From positions 263,191 to 327,190 of the forward strand of contig CAVSWR010000036.1 in the NCBI GenBank assembly GCA_963731685.1: a stretch of DNA of 64,000 bases, in the 5' to 3' direction. The position numbers and the translations under genes were made by a program. The stretch is from an uncultured Planctomycetia bacterium. GTDB lineage: Bacteria; Planctomycetota; Planctomycetia; Pirellulales; S012-138. The notes under the pieces were generated by a model. The model was not told the origin of the DNA, searched no databases, and saw nothing but the letters and a program-made list of their open reading frames with translations. Of the stretch, positions 8,894-64,000 are shown one piece after another (positions within the stretch are counted from its first letter, which is position 1; each line of letters starts with the position of its first letter).

Positions 8894-10298
8894 TGAACCG
8901 TCCGACCGTACGAAGCAAACGTCGCTGCATGAGACGCGTAACGCTCAGACGAACGCCGGCCGTGTGGTATCCCAACATCTCGAGTTCGCTCGCCAAACGG
9001 TCGAACGTAATACCGCGCTCCTGGGTCAAGCTGCGCATCGTCTGCAGAATGCAAGCATTGAGGAACCGGCCCAAGGGCTGCGCACATTCGGCGTCGAACA
9101 GGTTGATGAAACTCCCCCCGGAGTCTTCGGTTTGCCGGTGGTGGCGATAGGCGCCGCGGAAACAGGCCATGACCATCTCGTCTTCGTTCCAGGGCTGGCC
9201 GGCCAATCGCCTCTCGATCTGGGAGCAATAATGACCCGAGCGCAACAGGTCTGCAACGTCGTCAAGCACAGCGCGCAAGTCGCCGCAATGAATGCGGCAA
9301 AGCATGTCGTAAAGCGACGGGAATTCGCCCCACGATTCGGCGACCACCTGGTAAAGCGACTCGAGGAATTCGTTGCGGCCGGCCTCAGGCGCCCAACTAA
9401 GGTTGAGATCTTCGCCGTGTTCGAACCGCCGCCAAATGTCCTTCGCGGCGTCCATGCTGCGCACCACTTCGGCCCGCAATCGAAGCACCTCGGTGATCAA
9501 CGGCGGCGCCACGGTGACGCAAACCGGATCGGTCAGGGCCGTTGCGCCGACGGAATTCGGCCGCGCTGCGACGGTCACTGTCAAGTCGGGTGTCGCCAAC
9601 GACGAGGCGTATTCAATGGCAAATCGTTGAATGTCGGCGCCTAGGCAATCCAGGTTGTCGAGAACGATCCAGCCTTGCACACCCTGCTGCGCCATGTCGG
9701 CCGCAACGCTTTCCAGGACATCGGCAAACTCGCGTTCACTCAGGCTGCGGACGCTTTTGAGGGGAATTTGGCTGCCGCGAGTTTCCATGCCGCGCCGGCG
9801 GTGCATTCGAGTGGCGCTTTCGTACAGCCCTTCGCGAATCGACTGCTTGATGAAATCTTGCGCCGACTGGCCGGCCGAACGCGCGGCAATTGCCTGTCCG
9901 TCGAGACGATAGAAATAGCTCGAACTGGCGCGGAATTCTTGCGAGAAAAAACGCAGCATCCAGGTTGTCTTGCCAATGCCCTGGTCGCCTATGAGCAAGA
10001 CGGGACGCAGCGCGGCGTCGGTGGAATCGCCGGCCGTGCGGCGGCCGCGCAATTCACGCAGGTTGTGTTGTTGGGCCTCTGGCTTTGTCTCCAGCCGTAG
10101 CACGGCGGACAACGTTAAACCCGGATACCGTCGTTTGGAGACGGCCGCTTCGAGCTCGCAGTACGCTTCCTGCGCAACAACGTCGGGCGGAAGGCTCAGC
10201 GACAGCAAGAACGGTTCGATCACCTGCCGCCAACCCTCGTCGACGGGACACGTGTCTTCCGCCTCGGGAATGATGTCGATCAAGCGCTTTTGGTTCAT
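8709..10298 (-). CDS. Orphan P-loop NTPase (AAA/STAND-like), low-GC
   Basis: GGAGGG RBS then ATG at 10298. Walker A LLIGDQGIGKTTWML and Walker B-like GWIVLDNLDCLG. Local GC ~50-55% versus ~65% in flanking genes. Confidence 0.65.
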   Translation of the reverse strand: MNQKRLIDIIPEAEDTCPVDEGWRQVIEPFLLSLSLPPDVVAQEAYCELEAAVSKRRYPGLTLSAVLRLETKPEAQQHNLRELRGRRTAGDSTDAALRPVLLIGDQGIGKTTWMLRFFSQEFRASSSYFYRLDGQAIAARSAGQSAQDFIKQSIREGLYESATRMHRRRGMETRGSQIPLKSVRSLSEREFADVLESVAADMAQQGVQGWIVLDNLDCLGADIQRFAIEYASSLATPDLTVTVAARPNSVGATALTDPVCVTVAPPLITEVLRLRAEVVRSMDAAKDIWRRFEHGEDLNLSWAPEAGRNEFLESLYQVVAESWGEFPSLYDMLCRIHCGDLRAVLDDVADLLRSGHYCSQIERRLAGQPWNEDEMVMACFRGAYRHHRQTEDSGGSFINLFDAECAQPLGRFLNACILQTMRSLTQERGITFDRLASELEMLGYHTAGVRLSVTRLMQRRLLRTVGRFNGQNDEIQSESEDQLALSPSGDHYLDKLAGDDRYVLRHGRRHQTWRQRRRPADEAAMRFGQ

Positions 10299-47494: not shown

Positions 47495-47626
47495 GCCGCA
47501 CTCTCCAGTCATTGCTAGTTGGGCTGCAAAGTCCTACAATCTTTGCGGAGGGGGAAGGAAACTGGCCGTCGCGGCACACATCTTGTCATTGCCGTAGCGC
47601 TTTGTCCTCTCTAGCCGCCGTTTTTT

Positions 47627-47699
47627 GGGGACGTAGCTCAATCGGGAGAGCACCGGCTTTGCAAGCCGGGGGTTGGCGGTTCGATCCCGCTCGTCTCCA
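47627..47699 (+). tRNA. tRNA-Ala (anticodon TGC)
   Basis: Cloverleaf GGGGACG/CGTCTCC acceptor stem with the G3:U70 Ala identity pair. Anticodon loop TTTGCAA. T-arm GGTTCGATCC. Discriminator A. CCA is not encoded. Confidence 0.9.
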
Positions 47700-47702
47700 C
47701 TA

Positions 47703-47736
47703 AATGGCCACTCGCAGATTCCTGTAAGTGGCCATT
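47703..47736 (+). other. Perfect 10-bp hairpin AATGGCCACT-n14-AGTGGCCATT immediately 3' of tRNA-Ala
   Basis: Read directly from the sequence. Could be a tRNA terminator or an island attachment-site structure. Confidence 0.5.
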
Positions 47737-47777
47737 GTTATTGCGCTTGCATCTACACCTGCGCCGCCGAAATTGCC

Positions 47778-47865
47778 TGATTTTGTCTGCTGTGTCTGAT
47801 TTTGTGTCTGAGAATCGCCTCTTTGTGTCTGATCTTGGCCCCTATAATGCCATTTTCAGACACGA
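47778..47865 (+). promoter_or_regulatory. Operator-like cluster: 3-4 direct repeats T(T)TGTGTCTGA, one inverted copy TCAGACAC, and a perfect TATAAT (47843-47848)
   Basis: TGTGTCTGA at 47791, 47804 and 47824. A degenerate copy at 47778. Inverted copy at 47857. TATAAT lies between them, 55 nt upstream of a small ORF. Confidence 0.45.
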
Positions 47866-47963
47866 GACTCCACTTGATTCAGCGAGTCATGGGCGATGGC
47901 TAAGGAAACTCCATCATCGCGAAAGACAAGGTCGATACTCTCAAGATTCGTGCTCGCGCAATC

Positions 47964-48152
47964 GTGGGGCGCGATGGCGATTCCAAACAGGTTGCTGCGC
48001 TACGCAACCTGAATGCTCACCTTCACGGCATCGAGATCATTACGTACGATCAGTTGCTGCGGATCGCCGCCCGAGTACTCGACGTCTTTGAAACTGCTGG
48101 CACCGCTACAACAGAAGCAACTGCTGACTCAGATGCGGAGATTCAGTTCTAA
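47964..48152 (+). CDS. Small hypothetical ORF (GTG start; frame open from 47904) downstream of the regulated promoter
   Basis: …KDKVDTLKIRARAIVGRDGDSKQVAALRNLNAHLHGIEIITYDQLLRIAARVLDVFE… with an acidic tail. No family recognised. Confidence 0.3.
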   Translation: MGRDGDSKQVAALRNLNAHLHGIEIITYDQLLRIAARVLDVFETAGTATTEATADSDAEIQF

Positions 48153-52752: not shown

Positions 52753-54088
52753 GTGCTCTTGAAAAACGGCCTTGGCTCGCCAGCTTTCGCCGGCGGCGGC
52801 GCCGACCATGTCTACGAATCGCAATGGTGGATGGAACTGCCGCGCCACGCGGATGAAGACGATGAATTCGATCGGGCGATGAGCGAAGGAATCGCCGTGA
52901 CTGACGGCGCCGATGCGGATGTCTGGTCGGACGAGTCATTCCTCCCTGAGGCCGATTCTTTCCGTGATTGCGAACCTTCGCCAACTTCCGTTGGAGTTCA
53001 CGCTTTAGGCTGCTTGACGCCGCCGCGCGCGGAACGATCAACGGCAACGGCGCGCTTTTCGAAAGGCGCCACGTTCCCATAAAACGCTTATCGAGTCCAA
53101 GCCGCCGCGCGAATCCCGCCGCGGCGCGCTCTGGCTCGGTGTTTCGCTCCTCGTGGCCTTCTTCTCTCTGTTCCAGGCCCTTCCCCGTTGGTCAGCAAAC
53201 GACGGCCTTGCGCCGACGTGCGTTGAGCAAGCCGTCACTCTCGACTCGCTCGACACCAAACTTGCCGGCGACTACCGCGTCGGCGGCGAGTCCTTCAGCT
53301 TCTTCAACATCGAGGACATTCGCCCCGGACAACTCGTCCTCGCCTCGAACCCCGCCACCGGCCAGCTTGAGCCCAAACGCGTCAAGCAAATCTTCCGCCG
53401 CATTACGGACCATCTCCGCCACCTCACCTTTGAATCCTCCACCGGCGCCCGCCAAACCTTCGAAACCACCGACGAGCACCCCTTCTGGTCGCAATCCGAA
53501 TTTCGCTGGCGCCCCGCCGGCGACCTCCAACCCGGCGACCGAGTCATCGACCCCCACGGCGCCACCTCTCTCCTCGTCGCCACGCATCGCGAACCCCACC
53601 CCGAAGGCGTCCCAGTCTACAACTTCGAGGTAGAAGGCTTCCACAGCTACTTCGTAGCGGCAAAAGGCCCTGGCGGCCAGCCAGTGTTGGTGCATAATGC
53701 AAATTCACAAACATATGGCCCCCACAAATCAATTGGAACGAAAACCGGAGAGCAACGTCATCACATAATCCAAGATGCAAGAGCCAGGATTGTCGACAAC
53801 TACAAGTATGGCGATGCTCCCGCGGTTCGACTTCGGGGGAACCGCTTGCGTGGCACGCCGCATGGCGATGCGAGCGCGATGCAAACTCGAATAAATCAGA
53901 CGCTCCTAAAGAAAGGCACGACTCGGATAAGGTATCCACAAGCTCGATCGGCGGCGCGCGCTGAACTAAGGGCCGCAGGTCTCACGGAAAAGGAAATAGA
54001 CATCTTGATAGAGGAAGCCGACGATTACTTCATAAACGAACTGAAAATTGATGTAACGCAACGCATTTTCAACGTCCCAACGCAATGA
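52753..54088 (+). CDS. Polymorphic-toxin cassette B: 5'-truncated orphan (homology starts ~52800 at ADHVYxxQW); apparent frameshift ~53040-53090; Hint domain plus toxin tip B (RHHIIQ-type putative HNH-fold nuclease)
   Basis: …VYNFEVEGFHSYFVAAKGPGGQPVLVHNANSQTYGPHKSIGTKTGEQRHHIIQDARARIV… The tip is unrelated to tips A, C and D. Confidence 0.55.
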
Positions 54089-54921
54089 AAACCTGTAACT
54101 ATGTACGTATAAGGCGTGGCCTAACTGAGTGTAAATCACTAGTCTTGGCTCATATCGAAGATGATGACTCGCCAGATGTAATAGTGAGTCAACTCATTTC
54201 TATTGGCAGCGGTGACTGCGAAATTGTGGGTGACTTTCCAGGTGAGTGGATCACGTGCTTCGACGTTCAAGAAGACCTATGTGTTGCGGTTTCGTCGCTC
54301 GGAACAATCTACGAATATCGCCATGGTAAATGGAGCATCATTGCACAATTGACCTTTCCTAATGTGATCGCTGATGTGATCATATTGGATCGTGGCACGT
54401 ACTTGATTGCTGGCCAAGGCGGATTGATAGGCGAGTGGTCGCATGATGGATTTGTGCGAACCAGAGCATCTCGACGTGTGGACTTGATCTCAATTTGTCG
54501 CGATGAAGACGGTGGTTACTTGATATGTGGTGACCAAGGAACCATCCTGAGGTATCGCGACAATGCGGTGTTTAGCGAAGATGCAGGCACGCGTGAAAAG
54601 CTAACGAGGATTCTTTGTACGAATGCAGGTTTGTCATTTGCTTGTGGTTGGAACGGCGCATTGATACGGCGCGAAAGCGGAAAATGGCTACCGATGGATA
54701 GTGGCACAGATTGGTGCCTTACCGGGATCGCAATCACCGATCACGACCAAGTCTATGTGGCAGGTGGCGGGCTCGCCCGAGTTGGAAACGGTACTTGCTG
54801 TGTAGAAATAGATTCTGATCTAACGAATACATATTTATTTGACATATGGAAGATTCGTGACGAGCAGTTTATCGTTACCGGCGTGGACCAGGTATTGACT
54901 GGACCTCCGTGGAAAGTTTAA
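54085..54921 (+). CDS. Candidate immunity protein for toxin tip B
   Basis: ATGA start/stop overlap. ~45% GC. 278-aa protein with repeated G-x-L/I-rich units suggesting a repeat/propeller fold. Confidence 0.45.
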   Translation: MKTCNYVRIRRGLTECKSLVLAHIEDDDSPDVIVSQLISIGSGDCEIVGDFPGEWITCFDVQEDLCVAVSSLGTIYEYRHGKWSIIAQLTFPNVIADVIILDRGTYLIAGQGGLIGEWSHDGFVRTRASRRVDLISICRDEDGGYLICGDQGTILRYRDNAVFSEDAGTREKLTRILCTNAGLSFACGWNGALIRRESGKWLPMDSGTDWCLTGIAITDHDQVYVAGGGLARVGNGTCCVEIDSDLTNTYLFDIWKIRDEQFIVTGVDQVLTGPPWKV

Positions 54922-55062
54922 TGCAACCTTGAATATTGGTTTCAAACGTGGACTGCTGATCGTTGCGATGGTCTGCCCGTGCTACCTGTTGCGGAATTGA
55001 GGGCGACCAAGAACAGCCAAATCCGACTTGTGAGCCAGTTAGGTTCGCAACTAGCTCGGACT

Positions 55063-56712
55063 TACCTACCTGAGCGGCAAAGGCATCGCTCATGGCGTCG
55101 AGGCGATCGGCAACGGCGAGACGGTCGAAGGCATCAGTAGCGTCCTCTTGGGCGCCCTCGGCGTGGCCGGCGCCTTGTCGATGCGTTGGAACTGCTTCAC
55201 CGCCGGCCATCAGATTCTCGCCTTGCCGCTCGGCGTGACGGTGGCCGAAGCCGCGCTCGGCGCGAATGATGAAACGACCGGTTGGCGAACCGAGTATCTC
55301 ATCGGCGCCGGCGTAGCGATTGCCGTCGGCATGACCGGTTGGGCGCGCGAGCGCCGCAAACGCAGGCGATTGTTGGCGGAAGCCCGCGACCATGTGTATG
55401 GTTGCCAGTGGGAAACAAACTCGCGACATGACTTCGACGATAACGACGACCCGTTGCGGGAAGCAATCGCCATGGACCACGCGGAAGCCGCTATTTGGTC
55501 AGATGAATCGTTCCTCCCAGACGGGGATTCGTTCAATGAGCCAACAACCACGTCTTTTACTTCAGGCTCTGAACAAGCTCACAGCGTAGCGTGCCTTGCG
55601 CCGCCGCATGTGGCGCTTTCCGCTCGAATGCCGTGCGCCACGAAACCATCCGCTGCCCGCAATGCGAACGTGAAAGTTAAGACGCCGCGCCGATCCCGTC
55701 GCAGCGGTCTTTGGCTTGGTCTTTCACTCGTCGTAGCTTTCTTCTGCCTGTTCCAGGCGTTACCTCGCTGGTCTTCCACCGATGGCCTGCCATCGGCGGG
55801 CAATCGGCACGCCGTCGCTCCTTCTTCGCTCGACACGAACATCGCCAGCGACTACCGCGTCGGCGCGAACACGTACAACTTCTTCAACATCGAGGACATT
55901 CGACCCGGACAACTGGTCCTCGCCTCGAACCCCGCCACCGGCCAACTCGAACCGCGGCGAGTCCTTCAAACCTTCCGCCGCACAACCCATCACCTGCGCC
56001 ACCTGACCTTCCAATCCCCCACCGGCGCCCACCAAACCTTCGAAACCACCGACGAGCACCCCTTCTGGTCCCACGGCGCCGCCCGCTGGACCCCCGCTGG
56101 CGACCTCCAACCCGGCGACCGAGTCATCGACCCCCACGGCGCCAATCCCTACTCATCGCCACCCGCCGCGACCCCCATCCCGAAGGCGTCACCGTCTACA
56201 ACTTCGAGGTCGAAGGTTTCCACAGCTATTTCGTAGCCGCCAAAGGCCCTGGCGGCCAACCGGTATTGGTTCATAATGCAGCCTGCGGCCCCAACTCGCC
56301 CAGCCGGTCCAGATCCCGTCCGGCCAACGACGAATACCGTTCGAGTTACGACCGGATTTTTGGTGGCACCCCTAGGGGCGGAGCACATCCTGCTACTAAG
56401 AAAGCTGCAAGTTTTGGCAGTACAATGCATGCCGATAAACCCGGACACCTTCCGGACCAACTGCGTCAACGCTTTCCAGAGACTGAGTTTGAATTCACCA
56501 AACCGGGCGTTGCAGGACAAGATGTAAAGGTCGCGGGTGGCAAACACCCTTCGGATTACGCTGGATCGACGTGGCCAAGCGGAGTTAACCATGCTGATTT
56601 CAAACCGAATACCCCCGGTGGCTTGAAGACGTTCCAATCCGACCAGCTCAAGAAATGGTTGGAGAGGACCGAAATGTTACGCTACAATCCATCAACCGGA
56701 GACCTACTGTGA
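55063..56712 (+). CDS. Polymorphic-toxin cassette B2: 5'-truncated orphan (homology starts ~55063, just before the CFTAGHQ motif); 1-nt deletion ~56150; Hint domain plus toxin tip C (unassigned)
   Basis: ORFs 55148..56236 and 55711..56712. The tip shares its first ~25 aa (ACGPNSPSRSRSRPANDEYRSSYDRIFGG) with tip A and then diverges (…HADKPGHLPDQLRQRFPETEFEFTKPGVAGQDVKVAGGKHPSDYAGSTWPSGVNHADFKPNTPGG…). Confidence 0.5.
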
Positions 56713-57152
56713 TTAGCAAACAATTGGCGTATCCAGGGTTTACGATTGATGTTCCATGCAGCTGGGATGATATTACGGCGACTCTTGATGATGCGGACGC
56801 GCCTATTACAATCGCAGATCCTCAAGCAGGTTTGGGGGCGTTTCAGATATCGCCTGCGTTATATAAACGTGGTGTCTTACCCAAAGTGACGCCCAACGAC
56901 CTGCGGACTATGCTTCTTGAGTTTACGTCCGCTAAGGGCTTTCATGCCGCTGGCGACGTGATAGAGAATCTGGGCGACACCATTGTGGTGGGCGGCGTTT
57001 TTCGCAGTTCAAACTACGCCGTGGAAGTTGCCTACGCCTCTGACGGGCGGAGTATTCTGTTGGTAACCTATGTTTGTGAATGGTTTCAGAGGCGTCAGGA
57101 ATCGGACGTGAGAATGGCAGTGATCCGCTCAATCCGCTTTGTTGATTCTTAA
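56709..57152 (+). CDS. Candidate immunity protein for toxin tip C
   Basis: GTG overlapping the toxin stop (GTGA). 148 aa, soluble. Confidence 0.4.
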   Translation: MISKQLAYPGFTIDVPCSWDDITATLDDADAPITIADPQAGLGAFQISPALYKRGVLPKVTPNDLRTMLLEFTSAKGFHAAGDVIENLGDTIVVGGVFRSSNYAVEVAYASDGRSILLVTYVCEWFQRRQESDVRMAVIRSIRFVDS

Positions 57153-57351
57153 AGGCATGACGCATGACCAAGTCATGCTGTAACGACTCGTAGACCGCCA
57201 ATGCTTTAACCGAGAAGTAAAACGGGGACATCCTACTTTTTCGTTGCGGGTGCGCCGGCGTGCTGTCGAATGATCCGCCGCCGTGACCATCGTCTACGGC
57301 GGCCCGGCGATCGTCGCTGAGGTGAAGAGAAAAAGGGGATAAGTCCAATAT

Positions 57352-60300
57352 TTGCTCAATTTCAATCTGCCGTCGGTCGAGTTTTTGGTCGATCGGGCGT
57401 CGCACGAGGCGACCTGGGCCGCGGCCGAGGCGCCGCAATACGTCGCCTATCGCACGGCGGCGGCCCAGCTTCAACGCACTTACGACACCGCCGACATCAA
57501 CGCCGGGCGGGCCTGGGAAACCGCCCTGGCCACGGCCGGCTACAACCGCGACGTGGCCGAGGCCGCCGCCGAATATGCGAAAGAAACGGCCGTGGCCGCC
57601 GCGGGCAAGGCCTACGTCGACGGCGTCGCCCCCGTGGAGAGGACGCGCGCCGCCGACGTGGCCATAGCCTATCTCCTCTACGACTTCGCCGTGGCCGGCG
57701 CGCAATACGATTACGACATCGCCGATGTCCCGGACATGAACGTCTACAACGCCGCCGTGTCGGCCGCCGCGGGCGTTCGCGACGCGGCCGTCAAGACCGC
57801 CGAAAAGGCCTACGACACCGACGCCATCCAGGTCGAAAAGACGCGTCTTATCGCCCAGGCCGGCGCCGAACGTGACGCGAGCGTGGCTTTCGCCACCGCC
57901 GACGAGACTTGGCTCATCGCCGCCGCCGACGCCACGAAGACCGCCGCGCTGGCCGACGCCACGGCCGTCCACGACCGCGACCTGGCGCTGTTGAACACTG
58001 ACACCGGCTACCAGTCCGACAGCGCCGCCCGCTACGCCGATGAGATGCTCGCGCTGGCCCAAGGCAGCGACACGCCGTGGGGTTGGGAACACTCTGCGGA
58101 GGCCGCCGCCGCGGCCGAATACGCCTCCTCGATGGCCGCCGCCGCACTGACCGACGGCACAACCACGATCAACGAGAGCTACACGTTCGCGCAGACCGAG
58201 GCCGACGAGACCCGCACGCTTTCGGTCAACGAGGCCACGGCCGCCTTCAATTCCGCCACGGCGCTGGCCGCGGCCGAGTACAACCACGTCACGTCCCACG
58301 CCACGGCCCTGGCCAACGACAACTACCACATCGCCGAGCGCGTGCCGACGGCGGTGATCAACCTGGTCGGCCTGGACGACCTGGAAGGCCGCGCGGCCGG
58401 CGACCCGGCCGATTTCATCGCGGCCTTGAACAAGAACGGCGGCTCTCCCTTCAGCGACCTCGGCGACAGCTTCTACACGGCGGCCGTGGATAAGATGTTC
58501 TACACGCCGCCGGAGACCGACGAACTGGGCTACAGCAACAGATTCCAGCGCTGGCTTGGCGAGAACCTCATCCGCCCCGCCGTCGGCGACGACAATCTTA
58601 TCAACGCCAGCGACGCCGAGTTATTCTTCGGCACGGCCGCCTTCGCCACGATCGCGGCCGTCACCATCGTCTACACAGGGCCGACAATCGTTAGTTCGGT
58701 GATCGCCGCGCAGGGCGCCATCGCCGCCTTTGCCGGCAGTTCGTTTTTGGCGTATGAAGTCACGCAAGCGGCCACCGGCGCCGTCATCTCGGGCATCCTC
58801 GATGTGGCCATGCAGTTGCAAGCCGGCACGTCTTGGAGCCGCATCGACTGGGGGCAGGCCGGCATGGCCGCCTTGAACGGCGCCGTGACCGGCGCGGTTT
58901 TCGGCGCGGGCTTCAAGGGTCTCCAATTCGCCGCGACCGCCATCACCACGCGTTTCGCTGCGGCGTGCTTGCCGGTCACCTTCGGACTTAAAGGCATGAT
59001 GGCGGGCATGGCGGTCGACGGTATCAAGAATGGCGTCGAAGCGTGGAACAACGGCGACTTTGTCGGAGGCGCCACAAGCATAGCCTTTGGCATACTCGGC
59101 TTGAAAGGCGCCTTGAGTTTGGGCACAAACTGCTTCACCGCCGGCCATCAGATTCTCGCCTTGCCGCTCGGCGTGACGGTGGCCGAAGCCGCGCTCGGCG
59201 CGAATGATGAAACGACCGGTTGGCGAACCGAGTATCTCGTCGGCGCCGGCGTAGCGATTGCCGTCGGCATGACCGGTTGGGCGATCGAACGCCGCAAACG
59301 CCGGCGATTGTTGGCGGAAGCCCGCGACCACGTGTATGGTTGCCAGTGGGAATCAAACTCGCGACATGAACTCGACGACGACGCCCCGTTGCGGGAAGCA
59401 ATCGCCATGGACCATGCGGAAGCCACTATTTGGGCGGATGAATCGTTCCTGCCAGACGCGGACTCGTTCTATGAGCCAACAACCACCTCTTTTACTTCAG
59501 GCTCTGAACAAGTTCACAGCGTAGCGTGCCTCGCGCCGCCGCAAGTGGCACTTTCCACTCAAACGCCGCGCACCGCAAAAACATCCGCCGCCCGCAAAGC
59601 GAAGGTACCGACCGAGCCGCAGCGTAAATCACATCGCAGCGGTCTCTGGCTGGGTCTTTCACTCGTCGTTGCTTTCTTCTGCCTCTTCCAGGCGCTACCT
59701 CGCTGGTCCCGCACCGACGGCCTAACATCAGCGGGCACCCAACACGGTGTCGCGTCCGCGTCTTTCGACACCAACTTAGGCGCCGACTACCGCGTTGCCG
59801 GCGAATCCTACCAATTCTTCAAAATCGAGGATATCCGTCCCAACCAACTCGTCCTCGCCTCGAACCCCGCCACCGGCCAACTCGAACCGCGGCGAGTTCT
59901 CCAAACCTTCCGTCGCACAACCTATCACCTGCGCCACCTGACCTTCGAGTCCCCATCCGGCGCCCGTCAAACTATCGAAACCACCGACGAGCACCCCTTC
60001 TGGGCGCAATCCGAGTTTCGGTGGCGCCCTGCCGGCGACCTCCAACCCGGCGACCGCGTCATCGACCCGCACGGCGCGCAATCCCTCCTCGTCACCACCC
60101 ACCGCGAGCCCCACCCCGAAGGCGTAGCCGTCTACAACTTCGAGGTCGAAGGCTTCCACAGCTACTTCGTAGCGGCAAAAGGCCCTGGCGGGGAACCAGT
60201 GTTGGTTCATAATGCTAGTTACGGTGAGAATGCGCCAAGGGCGGGAGTCGCGTCAGCTGGCCCGGGAGCGGCGCAATCAAAGTCCAGCGGTTTTACGATG

Positions 60301-60717
60301 TGGCGTTGGATCACTGGTGAGCCCACAAAAGCGTTTCCGCAGGCTCGATTTTCTTTCTACCGTGTCGCCAGATCAGAGAAGTTTGCTTCGCACTTTGGAT
60401 TTTCGAGAGTAGGAGCCGCAAATCGGTCCGAATACGCAGCTTTCCTGCGACAATTGCGTAGCGCTGAGTTTAGACAAAGCAACGTCGTACAAGGCGGTTG
60501 GGCTGGCCGCGGTGCTGACGGAAACATCGTTATGGCACTAAGCCAGCGCAATCTGAACAACACTATGGCTGCGACTCATGAACTGACGCATTTAGTTCGG
60601 AACTTCCGGGGGATTACGCCTTTTGAGGCTGAGGCATCAATGCGTGGAGTCTTTCGATACAGAGCTTGGATTGAGGAGGCCAGAACATGGTGGCACATGT
60701 GGAGAGGTGGGCAATGA
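57352..60717 (+). CDS. Intact polymorphic toxin (1121 aa): Ala-rich N-terminal region, variable Gly-zipper-like hydrophobic segment, split Hint domain, C-terminal HExxH (zinc-metallopeptidase-like) toxin tip D
   Basis: Single uninterrupted ORF from TTG 57352. Contains CFTAGHQILALPLG…(insert with RRKRRRLL and the TM helix LWLGLSLVVAFFCLF)…IEDIRPNQLVLASNPATGQLEPRRV…TTDEHPFW…GDRVIDP…VYNFEVEGFHSYFV…VLVHNAS, then tip D with AATHELTHLV. Confidence 0.7.
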   Translation: MLNFNLPSVEFLVDRASHEATWAAAEAPQYVAYRTAAAQLQRTYDTADINAGRAWETALATAGYNRDVAEAAAEYAKETAVAAAGKAYVDGVAPVERTRAADVAIAYLLYDFAVAGAQYDYDIADVPDMNVYNAAVSAAAGVRDAAVKTAEKAYDTDAIQVEKTRLIAQAGAERDASVAFATADETWLIAAADATKTAALADATAVHDRDLALLNTDTGYQSDSAARYADEMLALAQGSDTPWGWEHSAEAAAAAEYASSMAAAALTDGTTTINESYTFAQTEADETRTLSVNEATAAFNSATALAAAEYNHVTSHATALANDNYHIAERVPTAVINLVGLDDLEGRAAGDPADFIAALNKNGGSPFSDLGDSFYTAAVDKMFYTPPETDELGYSNRFQRWLGENLIRPAVGDDNLINASDAELFFGTAAFATIAAVTIVYTGPTIVSSVIAAQGAIAAFAGSSFLAYEVTQAATGAVISGILDVAMQLQAGTSWSRIDWGQAGMAALNGAVTGAVFGAGFKGLQFAATAITTRFAAACLPVTFGLKGMMAGMAVDGIKNGVEAWNNGDFVGGATSIAFGILGLKGALSLGTNCFTAGHQILALPLGVTVAEAALGANDETTGWRTEYLVGAGVAIAVGMTGWAIERRKRRRLLAEARDHVYGCQWESNSRHELDDDAPLREAIAMDHAEATIWADESFLPDADSFYEPTTTSFTSGSEQVHSVACLAPPQVALSTQTPRTAKTSAARKAKVPTEPQRKSHRSGLWLGLSLVVAFFCLFQALPRWSRTDGLTSAGTQHGVASASFDTNLGADYRVAGESYQFFKIEDIRPNQLVLASNPATGQLEPRRVLQTFRRTTYHLRHLTFESPSGARQTIETTDEHPFWAQSEFRWRPAGDLQPGDRVIDPHGAQSLLVTTHREPHPEGVAVYNFEVEGFHSYFVAAKGPGGEPVLVHNASYGENAPRAGVASAGPGAAQSKSSGFTMWRWITGEPTKAFPQARFSFYRVARSEKFASHFGFSRVGAANRSEYAAFLRQLRSAEFRQSNVVQGGWAGRGADGNIVMALSQRNLNNTMAATHELTHLVRNFRGITPFEAEASMRGVFRYRAWIEEARTWWHMWRGGQ

Positions 60718-60971
60718 CGGGACACACAACAAAGCTACAACGAGCGTTCTGGTGGTGGCGAAACCCGTTTGTAAAGTTAATCATGCTCATAGCCTTTTCA
60801 GCAATCGGTGGTATAGCTCTTGCAACGCATGAGCTGCCGTTCTGGGTCCGTTTTCCCATTTACATTCTGTGGAGCGTCACTGCAATTCTCACGTTGATTT
60901 GTGCCGCGGCTGTTCTATTGGAGGAACGCGCGCGAAAGAAAAGGCGGAAAGTGTCGGAGGATAAATCATGA
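60714..60971 (+). CDS. Candidate immunity protein for tip D: small two-TM membrane protein
   Basis: ATGA overlap with the toxin stop. Hydrophobic helices LIMLIAFSAIGGIALA and ILWSVTAILTLICAAAVLL, then a KKRRK tail. Confidence 0.5.
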   Translation: MTGHTTKLQRAFWWWRNPFVKLIMLIAFSAIGGIALATHELPFWVRFPIYILWSVTAILTLICAAAVLLEERARKKRRKVSEDKS

Positions 60972-60994
60972 GTTGATGAGGGAAAAAAGCTGTC

Positions 60995-61108
60995 ATGTGG
61001 GGAACGCGGTTTTAGCAGCAGCGCGTGCGGATCGCGGCCCAGCGTCGCGGGTTTTTCGAAAGTTCCGTCGACGGACTCGGCGTGGTTGCGGCGATCGACT
61101 CATCTCGG
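60995..61108 (+). repeat. ~115-bp inter-cassette element, copy 2
   Basis: Homologous to 52540-52660. Confidence 0.7.
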
Positions 61109-61321
61109 ACGGAAGAAAGGACGCGGGCGCATATATTGGGACACTTGCACAATCTGTCGGAGAAAGGAGGACATTCTACTTTTCCTGAATACGTGGAACG
61201 CCCCTTTGTTGTCAGAGCGCGACCTCACTGGCGGCAACTTCCTCCGTGACGGCCTTGTGATCGACTCGTCCGTTTCCTGCGACGACGATGTCCACACGTC
61301 GGTCGCCACACACGGAGGAGA

Positions 61322-64000
61322 TAAGTCCAATATTTCCTCCGTTCCCTTGCTCAATTACAACCTCCCGTCGGTCGATTTTCTGGTCGATCGGGCGTCGCAC
61401 GAGGCGACCTGGGCCGCGGCCGAGGCGCCGCAATACGTGGCCTATCGCACGGCGGTGGCCGGGTTGCAACGGGCTTACGACACGGCCGACATCAACGCCG
61501 GGCGGGCCTGGGAAACCGCCCTGGCCACGGCCGGCTACAACCGCGACGTGGCCGACGCCGCCGCCGAGTATGCGAAAGAAACGGCCGTGGCCGCCGCCGG
61601 CAAGGCCTACGCCGACGGCGTCGCCCCCGTGGAGAGGACCCGCGCCGCCGCCGTGGCCGCCGCCTATCGCGTCTACGACCTCGCCGTGGCCGACGCCCAG
61701 CGCGATTACGACACGGCCGATGTCCCGGATATGAACGCCTACAACGCCGCCGTGTCGGCCGCCGCGGGCGTTCGCGACGCGGCCGTCAAGACCGCCGAGA
61801 AGGCCTACGACACCGGGGCCATCCAGGTCGAAAAGACGCGTCTCATCGCCCAGGCCGGCGCCGAGCGTGACGCGAGCGTGGCTTTCGCCACGTCCGACGA
61901 GACTTGGCTCATCGCCGCCGCCGACGCCACGAAGACCGCCGCGCTGGCCGACGCCGCGGCCGTCCACGACCGCGACCTGGCGCTGCTGAACACCGACACC
62001 GGCTACCAGTCCGACAGCGCGGCCCGCTACGCCGACGAGATGCTCGCGCTGGCCCAAGGCAGCGACACGCCCTGGGGCTGGGAACACTACGCGGAGGCCG
62101 CCGCCGCGGCCGAATACGCCTCTTCGATGGCCACGGCCGCACTGACCGACGGCACAACCACCATCAACGAAAGCTACGCGTTCGCCCAAACCGAGGCCGA
62201 CGAGACCCGCACGCTTTCGGTGAACGAGGCCACGGCCGCCTTCAATTCCGCCACGGCGCTGGCCGCGGCCGAGTACAACCACGTCACGTCCCACGCCACG
62301 GCCCTGGCCGACGACAACTACCACATCGCCGAGCGCGTGCCGACGGCGGTGATCAACCTGGTCGGCCTGGACGATCTGGAAGGCCGCGCGGCCGGCGACC
62401 CGGCCGACTTCATCGCGGCCTTGAACAAGAACGGCGGCTCTCCCTTCAGCGACCTCGGCGACAGCTTCTACACGGCGGCCGTCGACAAGATGTTCTACAC
62501 GCCGCCGGAGACCGACGAACTCGGCTACAGCAACAGCTTCGACCGCTGGCTCGGCGAAAACCTCATCCGCCCCGCCATCGGCGACGACAATCTCATCAAC
62601 GCCACCGACGCCCAGCTATTCTGGGGCACCGCGGCCTTCGCCGCGATAAGCGCGGTGACCATCGTCTACGCCACCCCAGTGCTCGCCACGGCGGTGGTCG
62701 ACATGGGCATTAAGGGTGTGGCGTTCACTCTCGCGAAGGATTTCATAATCGGCGGCGCGATTTCTGGCGTCATCGACGCCGGAGTCCAGTTGGAGCACAT
62801 GTACGAAAACGGTGGTGACTTCAATTGGAGCCGACTCGGCGAGTCCGTCGTCGTGGGCGGCGTGATGGGCATGGGCATGGGAACCGCCTTCCGCGGCGTG
62901 CAGACCTTGTCGAAGGCCCTCACCACGCGCTACGCGGCGGCTTGCGTGCCGGTCACCATCGCCCAAAAGCTGGGGCTTACCTACCTGAGCGGCAAGGGCA
63001 TCGCGCATGGCGTCGAGGCGATCGGCAACGGCGAGACGGTCGAAGGCGTCAGTAGCGTCCTGTTGGGCGCCCTCGGCGTGGCCGGCGCCTTGTCGATGCG
63101 CTGGAACTGCTTCACCGCCGGCCATCAGATTCTCGCCTTGCCGCTCGGTGTGACCGTCGCCGACGCTGCGCATCGGCGGCAAGTGATGAAACGAGCGGTT
63201 GGCGAACGGAGTATCTCATCGGCGCCGGCGTGGCGATTGCCGTCGGCATGACCGGTTGGGCGCATGAACGCCGCAAACGCAGGCGACTGTTGGCGCAAGC
63301 GCGCGACCATGTGTATGGTTGCCAGTGGGAATCAAACTCGCGACATGATGTTGACGACGACGACGAATCGAGCCCGTTGCGGGAAGCAATCGCCATGGAC
63401 GACGCGGAAGCCGCTATTTGGTCGGATGAATCGTTTCTGCCAGACGCGGATTCGTTTGATGAGCCAGCAACTACCTCCTTCGCTTCAGGCGCCGAGCAGT
63501 TCACGGCGTAGCATGCCTGCCGCCGCCGCAAGCGGCGCAGTTGATTCAAACGCCGCGCGCCGCAAAACCATCCGCTGCCCGCAAAGCGAAGATCCGACCG
63601 AGCCGCTGCGAGAATCACATCGCGGCGGTCTTTGGTTTGGTCTTTCACTCGTCGTCGCTTTCTTCTGCCTCTTCCAGGCGCTACCCCGCTGGTCCCACAC
63701 CGACGGCCTTCAATCAGCGCGCACTCGACACGGTGTCGCTCCGCTTCTCTCGACACGAACATCGCCAGCGACTACCGCGTCGGCGCGCGACACCTACAAA
63801 TTCTTCAACATCGAGGACATTCGTGCCGGACCAACTCGTCCTCGCCTCGAACCCCGCCACCGGCCAACTTGAACCGCGGCGCGTTCTCCAAACCTTCCGT
63901 CGCACAACCTATCACCTGCGCCACCTAACCTTCCAGTCCCCCACCGGCGCCCGTCAAACCTTCGAAACCACCGACGAGCACCCCTTCTGGTCTCACGGCG
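61322..64000 (+). CDS. Polymorphic-toxin cassette D (3' end outside window): starts at the same boundary as the intact copy (GDKSNI…LLNYNLPSVDFLV); three or more apparent frameshifts (~63165, ~63505, ~63790)
   Basis: ORF 61086..63251 matches copy 57352.. from 61322 on. The central hydrophobic segment is of the cassette-A type. After CFTAGHQILALPLGVTVA the frame is lost and resumes in ORFs 63230.., 63264.. and a further frame to the window end. Confidence 0.55.

Follow-up and report, generated by a model that had tools for sequence, protein, structure and literature searches.

The only tRNA gene that ARAGORN finds in the window, as we call the whole 64,000-nucleotide stretch analysed here, is an intact tRNA-Ala(TGC) gene on the forward strand at 47627-47700 (Rfam RF00005, 67.9 bits), which we take to be the target of a past integration. 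A terminator-like hairpin of 15 pairs with a 4-nt loop follows it on the same strand at 47703-47736, as detected by inverted-repeat search and folding. Its outer stem is a perfect 10 bp (AATGGCCACT/AGTGGCCATT), as the preliminary description of this DNA had pointed out, and if one mismatch and a G-U pair are allowed it extends to the full 15 pairs. The computed folding energy is -21.8 kcal/mol (z = -4.8), and none of 200 shuffled sequences was equally stable. A consensus scan of the tRNA flank called no intrinsic terminator, and the T-tract of the window is weak. The region has a single sigma-70-like promoter match (TTGCTA-17-TACAAT, 47512-47540), which precedes the tRNA-Ala gene by about 87 nt and may be that gene's own promoter.

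Beyond the hairpin lies an array of short repeats. Three exact direct copies of the nonamer TGTGTCTGA, here named R1, R2 and R3, occupy forward-strand positions 47791-47799, 47803-47811 and 47824-47832, R2 coming 12 bp after R1 and R3 21 bp after R2, and a degenerate copy, TTTGTCTGC, precedes them at 47782-47790. R3 stands where a -35 element would be and ends 10 bp before the hexamer TATAAT (47843-47848), the -10 box of what would be, or would once have been, an integrase promoter. Seven base pairs past the hexamer, and over the expected transcription start, an inverted copy (TCAGACAC) is read on the reverse strand at 47856-47863, followed by a 5'-leader block, GAGACTCCAC, at 47864-47873 on the forward strand. 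Measured from the 3' end of the tRNA gene, R1 to R3 span +97 to +137 and the inverted repeat lies at +161. The clustering is not what chance would produce: TGTGTCTGA occurs in four copies in the 64-kb window against 0.16 expected, and none of 100 shuffles reached four. With one mismatch allowed, the scan of the whole window gains a single site, the inverted copy at 47856-47864, and shows no other cluster. The array of three direct, one degenerate and one inverted repeat around TATAAT is as it had first been described. The claim of a consensus -10 box can be kept for the hexamer, but a consensus scan for sigma-70 promoters called none in this flank and the -35 hexamer is absent.

Past the leader, the sequence consists of the remains of two genes. 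The twelve bases ATG GCT AAG GAA (M-A-K-E; ATGGCTAAGGAA) at 47898-47909 on the forward strand are identified by alignment with related loci as the start of an integrase gene, which in relatives reads ATGGCGAAGAA(G/A)AAAGAACTCTGC... (MAKKKELC...). The alignment departs after ATGGCTAAGGAA, where sequence of the nuclease gene sduA of the Shedu defence system begins; the integrase gene has thus been deleted from about codon 5. Integrase similarity ends at about 47909 and SduA DNA similarity starts, by blastn against SduA loci, at 47905-47909, so that the two overlap in a short ambiguous GGAAACT, which places the junction within ten bases, at 47903-47912. The deletion may have occurred through this microhomology. 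The preliminary description had found no integrase gene nearby; tblastn with five members of the integrase family detects no other fragment in the 64-kb window, but the first four codons of one do survive.

The same description spoke of small low-GC open reading frames following the repeats. None of the three frames downstream of the repeats holds a credible gene, and the forward-strand segment at about 47906-48152 is instead a 3' remnant, about 80 codons long, of an SduA gene, as judged by PADLOC (SduA PDLC00402, E = 1e-10, profile positions 278-354 of 354), Pfam (SduA_C, E = 0.0016) and homologues. Its 82-residue frame runs from 47903 up to a stop at 48152 and has no start codon before 47964. 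A database search gives 28 relatives, the fragment being up to 84% identical to metagenomic SduA C-termini; they look short only because of short contigs, an IS3 insertion or an assembly gap, and two loci (L087 and L088) carry the full gene of about 370 codons. The fragment resembles Shedu (SduA, DUF4263) in matching the C-terminal end of the SduA profiles, but it comprises the last 80 or so residues only: the whole N-terminal part is missing, and so is the nuclease motif (D..EIVEIK in homologues), which would lie about 50 residues upstream of its start. With neither a start codon nor the catalytic E-x-K region, the remnant must be regarded as a pseudogene and not as a defence system. It has the same orientation as the integrase gene and was presumably cargo of the island.

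Further downstream, at 53153-63251, lies a polymorphic-toxin cassette array with Pretoxin-HINT (PT-HINT) domains, comprising among others the open reading frames at 53153-54088, 55148-56236 and 57352-60717. Those starting at 57352 and 61086 share near-identical opening segments of about 200 residues and have no good start codons, as expected of orphan recombination cassettes. Pfam and NCBIfam searches of the open reading frames downstream of the tRNA gene returned nothing beyond these toxin cassettes. On the other side of the tRNA gene, the flanking host gene has its closest named relatives in Pirellulaceae MAGs. A contig scan with the upstream 353-aa protein yielded only a 48%-identical match on a non-syntenic Pirellulaceae MAG contig without a tRNA gene.

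The nature of the flank became apparent from its relatives. When metagenome contigs were scanned for the repeat in two direct copies and an inverted one, 18 loci came up, 17 of which are unrelated repeats. The remaining one (L102, also represented by L107) is truly homologous to the flank over its whole length: it has a tRNA-like 3' end, a hairpin with the stem seen in the window, repeats that are spaced as they are there, TATAAT and the inverted repeat, after which ATGGCGAGGAAAAAAGAACTC... opens a long reading frame. Searches with the protein led to further loci (L108, L109, L110-L115, L116-L118 and L119-L120). In all, the same module occurs at the same spacing in ten other loci from Planctomycetota metagenomes (L107, L108, L109, L110-L113, L116, L119, L121 and L122), and the window shares homology with element DNA, starting at 47701, in seven loci. 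In these relatives, a tmRNA or tRNA-Ser gene adjoins the module with its 3' end, and the start codon of a protein of about 615 residues lies on the other side. The order in the L102/L107 locus and in L108-L120 is tmRNA 3' block, hairpin, R1, 12 bp, R2, 21 bp, R3, 10 bp, -10 box, inverted repeat, leader, ATGGCGAAGAA. Taking the integrase of the L102/L107 locus as the 100% reference (the window has no identity value, its own integrase being deleted), contigs of family members at 100, 86, 73, 71, 57 and 48% identity all carry the module upstream. The offsets of the repeats from the 3' end of the target gene are similar in most of them.

The hairpin belongs to the module. Its 15 pairs are kept across seven loci, with compensatory double changes in five pairs, and the tract 3' of the stem reads TTTTCAT or TTTTTAT in relatives as against the degenerate GTTATTG of the window copy. 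Most simply, it would act as a terminator, carried in by the element for the tRNA or tmRNA gene that it regenerates.

The targets themselves differ among loci. Complete tmRNA genes stand upstream of the module in L109 and L116 (ARAGORN; Rfam 171 and 169 bits), and only the last 25 or so nucleotides of one precede the hairpin in L108 and L110-L113, which is how an attP or a tandem array would look. Two IMG/VR contigs (L121 and L122, at 35 and 30% integrase identity) have a tRNA-Ser(GCT) gene in this place. After it come a terminator hairpin, a -10-like box and an array of three direct repeats with an inverted copy, the repeat words being altered. The tmRNA gene, ssrA, is a classic integration hotspot, and tmRNA has a tRNA-Ala-like domain in which the acceptor and T arms are mimicked. 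Comparison of the last 23 or so nucleotides of the window's tRNA-Ala gene (GGTTCGATCCCGCTCGTCTCCA, 47678-47700) with the tmRNA 3' block of related elements (L109, 365-391; L116, about 9785-9812) shows identity at 19 of 23 aligned positions. Judged from these alignments, target switching among tmRNA, tRNA-Ala and tRNA-Ser genes within one integrase family is suggested. Two of the loci also show a marginal tRNA-like match some 95 bp past the stop codon of the integrase gene (L110, 5421-5489; L112, 11955-12023), which scores 30 bits in Rfam against a threshold of 29 and is not called by ARAGORN.

Searches in collections of mobile elements were less rewarding. The flank has no blastn match in plasmid and phage collections. 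A scan of viral contigs for three 8-mers with free gaps gave 84 stretches, almost all of them plain tandem repeats in coding DNA, and was discarded. Two low-GC, Bacteroidota-like phage contigs from IMG/VR (L059, 8780-9060, and L077) do carry irregular, iteron-like clusters of direct and inverted TGTGTCTGA, located in an intergenic region beside the gene for a 1115-aa primase-helicase. That they have this 9-mer in common with the window is probably the coincidence of a short word.

The preliminary description had counted absence of the repeats from homologous loci against its reading; they are present there and conserved. Over seven loci, the 8-mer cores of R1, R2 and R3 are 0.96-0.98 conserved (0.98 for R1), as against 0.63-0.66 in the longer spacers. 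The inverted copy reaches 0.88, the leader block 0.87 and the -10 box 0.86; the degenerate copy, at 0.67, is conserved in the closest relatives only. At the position of TATAAT, relatives have TATAAT, TACAAT, TAGAAT or TAAAAT, always at a fixed gap of 9-10 bp from R3. Spacing is preserved as well: R1 and R2 are 12 bp apart and R2 and R3 21 bp apart in all loci with at least 48% integrase identity, and at 30% identity the distances are still 13 and 21 bp. The inverted copy is present in all loci down to 57% identity; it is altered in L121 and L122 and absent from L116.

The words, by comparison, drift together with the integrase. GTGTCTGA is found three times in the reference locus and at 71-86% identity. 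At 57%, R3 has become ATGTCTGA; at 48%, there are two copies of GTATCTGA and one of ATGTCTGA; at 35%, TGTCTGATAA occurs three times with TATCAGACA as its inverted copy; and at 30%, TTGTCGGATTT occurs three times with ATCCGACA inverted. The path thus runs from GTGTCTGA to ATGTCTGA or GTATCTGA, then to TGTCTGATAA and on to TTGTCGGAT, the inverted copy, where present, changing in step with the direct ones. The integrase is also the only constant neighbour gene of the module across loci. Conservation above that of the spacers, together with drift in parallel with the integrase, suggests that the repeats are sites for a protein encoded by the element and not for a host factor.

The protein whose gene follows the module has more than 200 relatives of 600-620 residues, nearly all of them from Planctomycetota-type metagenomes, and a few are labelled "integrase" by their source. 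Pfam (Phage_integrase included), NCBIfam and a phmmer search of the PDB all failed to recognise it as an integrase; what sequence searches did return was a weak C-terminal helix-turn-helix (HTH) and a marginal match to the core-binding domain of λ Int. An AlphaFold (AF2) model built from a 50-sequence alignment (mean pLDDT 85.8) gave a clearer answer. In Foldseek, it matched XerA, XerH, λ Int, Tn1549 Int, IntI and Cre with a probability of 1.00 and E values of 2e-6 to 1e-3, and on this predicted structure the protein is a tyrosine recombinase with core-binding and catalytic fold. The assignment is owed to structure prediction and fold search only, the sequence searches having failed to make it. 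With it, the proposal made from the window itself, that the tRNA 3' end marks an island boundary, is supported: in homologous loci, the same module precedes a tyrosine-recombinase gene.

Other parts of the protein are informative too. Motif inspection points to invariant K410, R497 (in LRKT) and Y532 and near-invariant H519 as candidate catalytic residues, and the usual position of the first catalytic arginine seems to be taken by GLNCGF, with an invariant N365. The N-terminal domain is strongly conserved, with many invariant residues between positions 13 and 53, and its predicted β-sheet plus helix (AP2-like) resembles the DNA-binding domain of λ Int and other known arm-binding domains. At the C terminus, many members have an HTH recognised by Pfam as HTH_23 or HTH_7, and a profile search of the PDB matches HTHs of the IS21 type and of resolvases at E ~0.02. 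A peculiarity of the reference locus is an in-frame TGA after codon 59 of its integrase gene (L102, 1505-1503 on the minus strand; L107, about 384-386), at the end of the N-terminal domain, which leads gene callers to split the gene into products of 59 and 778 aa. On sequence grounds, this could be a pseudogene, a sequencing error or a case of recoding.

Taken together, these data make it highly probable that the flank is what is left of an integrative element at its int-proximal boundary and that it retains the int promoter along with element-specific, putative protein-binding repeats. From the anatomy of the boundary, its homologues, the recombinase fold, the covariation of the sites and the deletion junction, we infer an integration event, a binding protein, a transcription start and a form of repression, which might be linked as follows. 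An element would have inserted by site-specific integration into the 3' end of the tRNA-Ala gene, making 47701-47912 the attL or P' side. In intact relatives, the element contributes the last part of its target RNA gene together with the terminator-like hairpin. Some 95-135 bp from the core it has three direct repeats in phase, at distances of 12 and 21 bp or approximately one and two helical turns, and an inverted copy, bracketing the -10 box of a promoter from which int, of about 615 codons, would be transcribed away from the tRNA gene. Binding of the AP2-like N-terminal domain of the integrase to the repeats would help to build the recombination complex. It might also shut the int promoter, with R3 occupied at the -35 position and the inverted copy over the start site. 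A later deletion, extending from codon 5 of int to the last 250 bp of the downstream SduA cargo gene, would then have left the control region behind as an orphaned relic.

Most of this arrangement has precedents. Elements inserted at the 3' end of tRNA genes are known to regenerate the target gene with sequence of their own (PMC4383910). [quoted passage not shown] The same negative autoregulation, established by experiment in KplE1, was reported for Int of phage P4, and it was argued to be common to, or shared by most, tRNA-associated integrases (PMC2951348). The loci studied here share with KplE1 and P4 an int gene beside a tRNA 3' end and transcribed away from it, a promoter inside attL and several short repeats over the -35 region, -10 box and start site, and by analogy negative autoregulation would be expected. 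They differ in the integrase, which has about 615 residues, falls outside Pfam Phage_integrase and possesses an extra C-terminal HTH, and in the sequence of the repeats; moreover, the integrase of the window is deleted. Because of this KplE1-like anatomy, we read R1 to R3 and the inverted copy as arm-type sites for the integrase that double as the operator of its promoter. As regards the specific point that the repeats are arm-type sites for the N-terminal domain, we lean only slightly towards it, and the full statement that combines the boundary relic with this claim strikes us as moderately probable.

Analogies with λ Int go in the same direction. Like P'1-P'3 of the λ P' arm, three direct repeats lie at some 100-135 bp from the core on the arm next to int, and like λ-type arm sites in general they are unrelated to the core and within about 150 bp of the crossover region; the predicted N-terminal β-sheet plus helix domain and the matches of the core-binding and catalytic folds add to the likeness. 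Spacing differs, being 12 and 21 bp here and not contiguous, and the sites overlap the int promoter, whereas in λ, int is transcribed from PI/PL towards attL. The opposite arm differs as well. λ-type integrases normally have arm sites on both arms, but the repeat cluster studied here is one-armed, on the int side, in every locus examined. In the attP-like loci (L108 and L110-L113), the other arm holds no convincing copies, a single one-mismatch match being at the background rate.

This one-sidedness bears on what binds the repeats. They could be operators for a separate regulator encoded by the element, an Xis-like RDF or a repressor, which would govern excision and the expression of int, with the integrase itself not binding. 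Sites of RDFs are typically short phased direct repeats in one att arm, the TorI sites of KplE1 share attL with the int promoter (PMC2951348), and both the one-armed cluster and an inverted copy over the start site, which resembles a classic operator, would fit such a protein. Candidates exist among small unannotated open reading frames near the core, such as one of 78 aa in L110, L112 and L114. However, no small gene is conserved beside the module in all loci, where the integrase is the sole constant neighbour, and it is with the divergence of the integrase that the motif changes, so that we rate a separate regulator as fairly unlikely. Less likely still, and in our view improbable, is that the integrase reads the repeats through its C-terminal HTH, which would make them an autoregulatory operator and not recombination arm sites. 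The HTH (HTH_23, HTH_7 and the IS21-type/resolvase match) is there in the family and the sites are one-armed, but nothing links the HTH to them, and it is the highly conserved N-terminal domain that resembles known arm-binding domains.

Response regulators of the OmpR/PhoB type bind direct repeats that replace the -35 element, and the direct repeats of about 11-12 bp that end 10 bp before a -10 box lacking a -35 resemble activator-dependent promoters of this kind. A host promoter with sites for such a host factor, which would serve the genes beyond the tRNA and be unrelated to any mobile element, is nonetheless very improbable and largely refuted by the comparative sequences: the module always accompanies the integrase gene, at tmRNA, tRNA-Ala and tRNA-Ser targets and in different organisms, its motif changes with the integrase, and in the window merely a 4-codon int stub and a pseudogene follow it. 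The end of a Tn7- or Mu-like transposon, suggested by TGT-initiated repeats (transposase-binding sites in such elements) beside a tRNA gene and a truncated gene, has a negligible probability and was rejected, as the window contains neither a second, inverted cluster nor transposase genes, the partner gene is a tyrosine recombinase in every homologous locus and the module abuts the tRNA or tmRNA 3' block.

Reading the flank as the boundary relic of an integrative element explains a tRNA flank devoid of an integrase as a scar. Islands of the kind found by Islander and TIGER are tyrosine-integrase elements that occupy the 3' end of a tDNA, and here too the target tRNA-Ala gene is intact; the difference is that the window copy has neither the integrase gene, which adjoins the target gene in relatives (L107-L122) and is reduced to a 4-codon stub in the window, nor a displaced tDNA fragment inside the window. 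Island finders that require both would miss such a scar. As for attR, neither a search allowing up to three mismatches to the last 22 nt of the tRNA-Ala gene nor blastn-short gave a match in the 16 kb downstream, and attR was likewise searched for in related loci and not found. It may lie beyond position 64000 of the window, or it may have been lost. At least part of the downstream DNA, starting with the Shedu remnant, would be horizontally acquired.

The arrangement as such is well known and represents an ordinary genomic-island scar with no new mechanism; it is the integrase family that is somewhat unusual and lacks annotation. With eleven loci, three target genes and a motif covarying with a protein, there is now a comparative set for a family that current profile libraries do not see, which should help when prophages and islands of Planctomycetota are annotated or sites for binding tests are selected. 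It is tempting to go further and to envision, as a tentative and rather doubtful possibility when taken as a whole, a family of large planctomycete integrases (about 600-620 aa) whose attP departs from the two-armed λ paradigm. Such enzymes would combine an AP2-like arm-binding N-terminal domain with an HTH at the C terminus, might depart from the canonical first catalytic residue, and would move among tmRNA, tRNA-Ala and tRNA-Ser genes with a one-armed site array embedded in a promoter. On the same tentative reading, the orphaned and presumably de-repressed promoter of the window may now drive the genes downstream.

Two further observations concern SduA. The IS3-family element mentioned above (HTH_Tnp_1 + rve; L087, 653-1785) interrupts a homologous SduA gene just upstream of the nuclease motif and represents another inactivation of SduA in these organisms. 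In addition, the subfamily to which the remnant belongs has an acidic tail ending in ...DDDIPF, with the IPF end in 10 of the 19 sequences read; most of the other tails consist of an acidic stretch followed by P/A-F, and the window remnant (48100-48152) ends in ADSDAEIQF. A full-text literature search retrieved no paper linking Shedu SduA with SSB. The single-stranded DNA-binding protein of E. coli ends in DFDDDIPF, the same C-terminal tip, and from this resemblance in sequence the SduA tail may be a mimic of the SSB tail carried by a defence nuclease.
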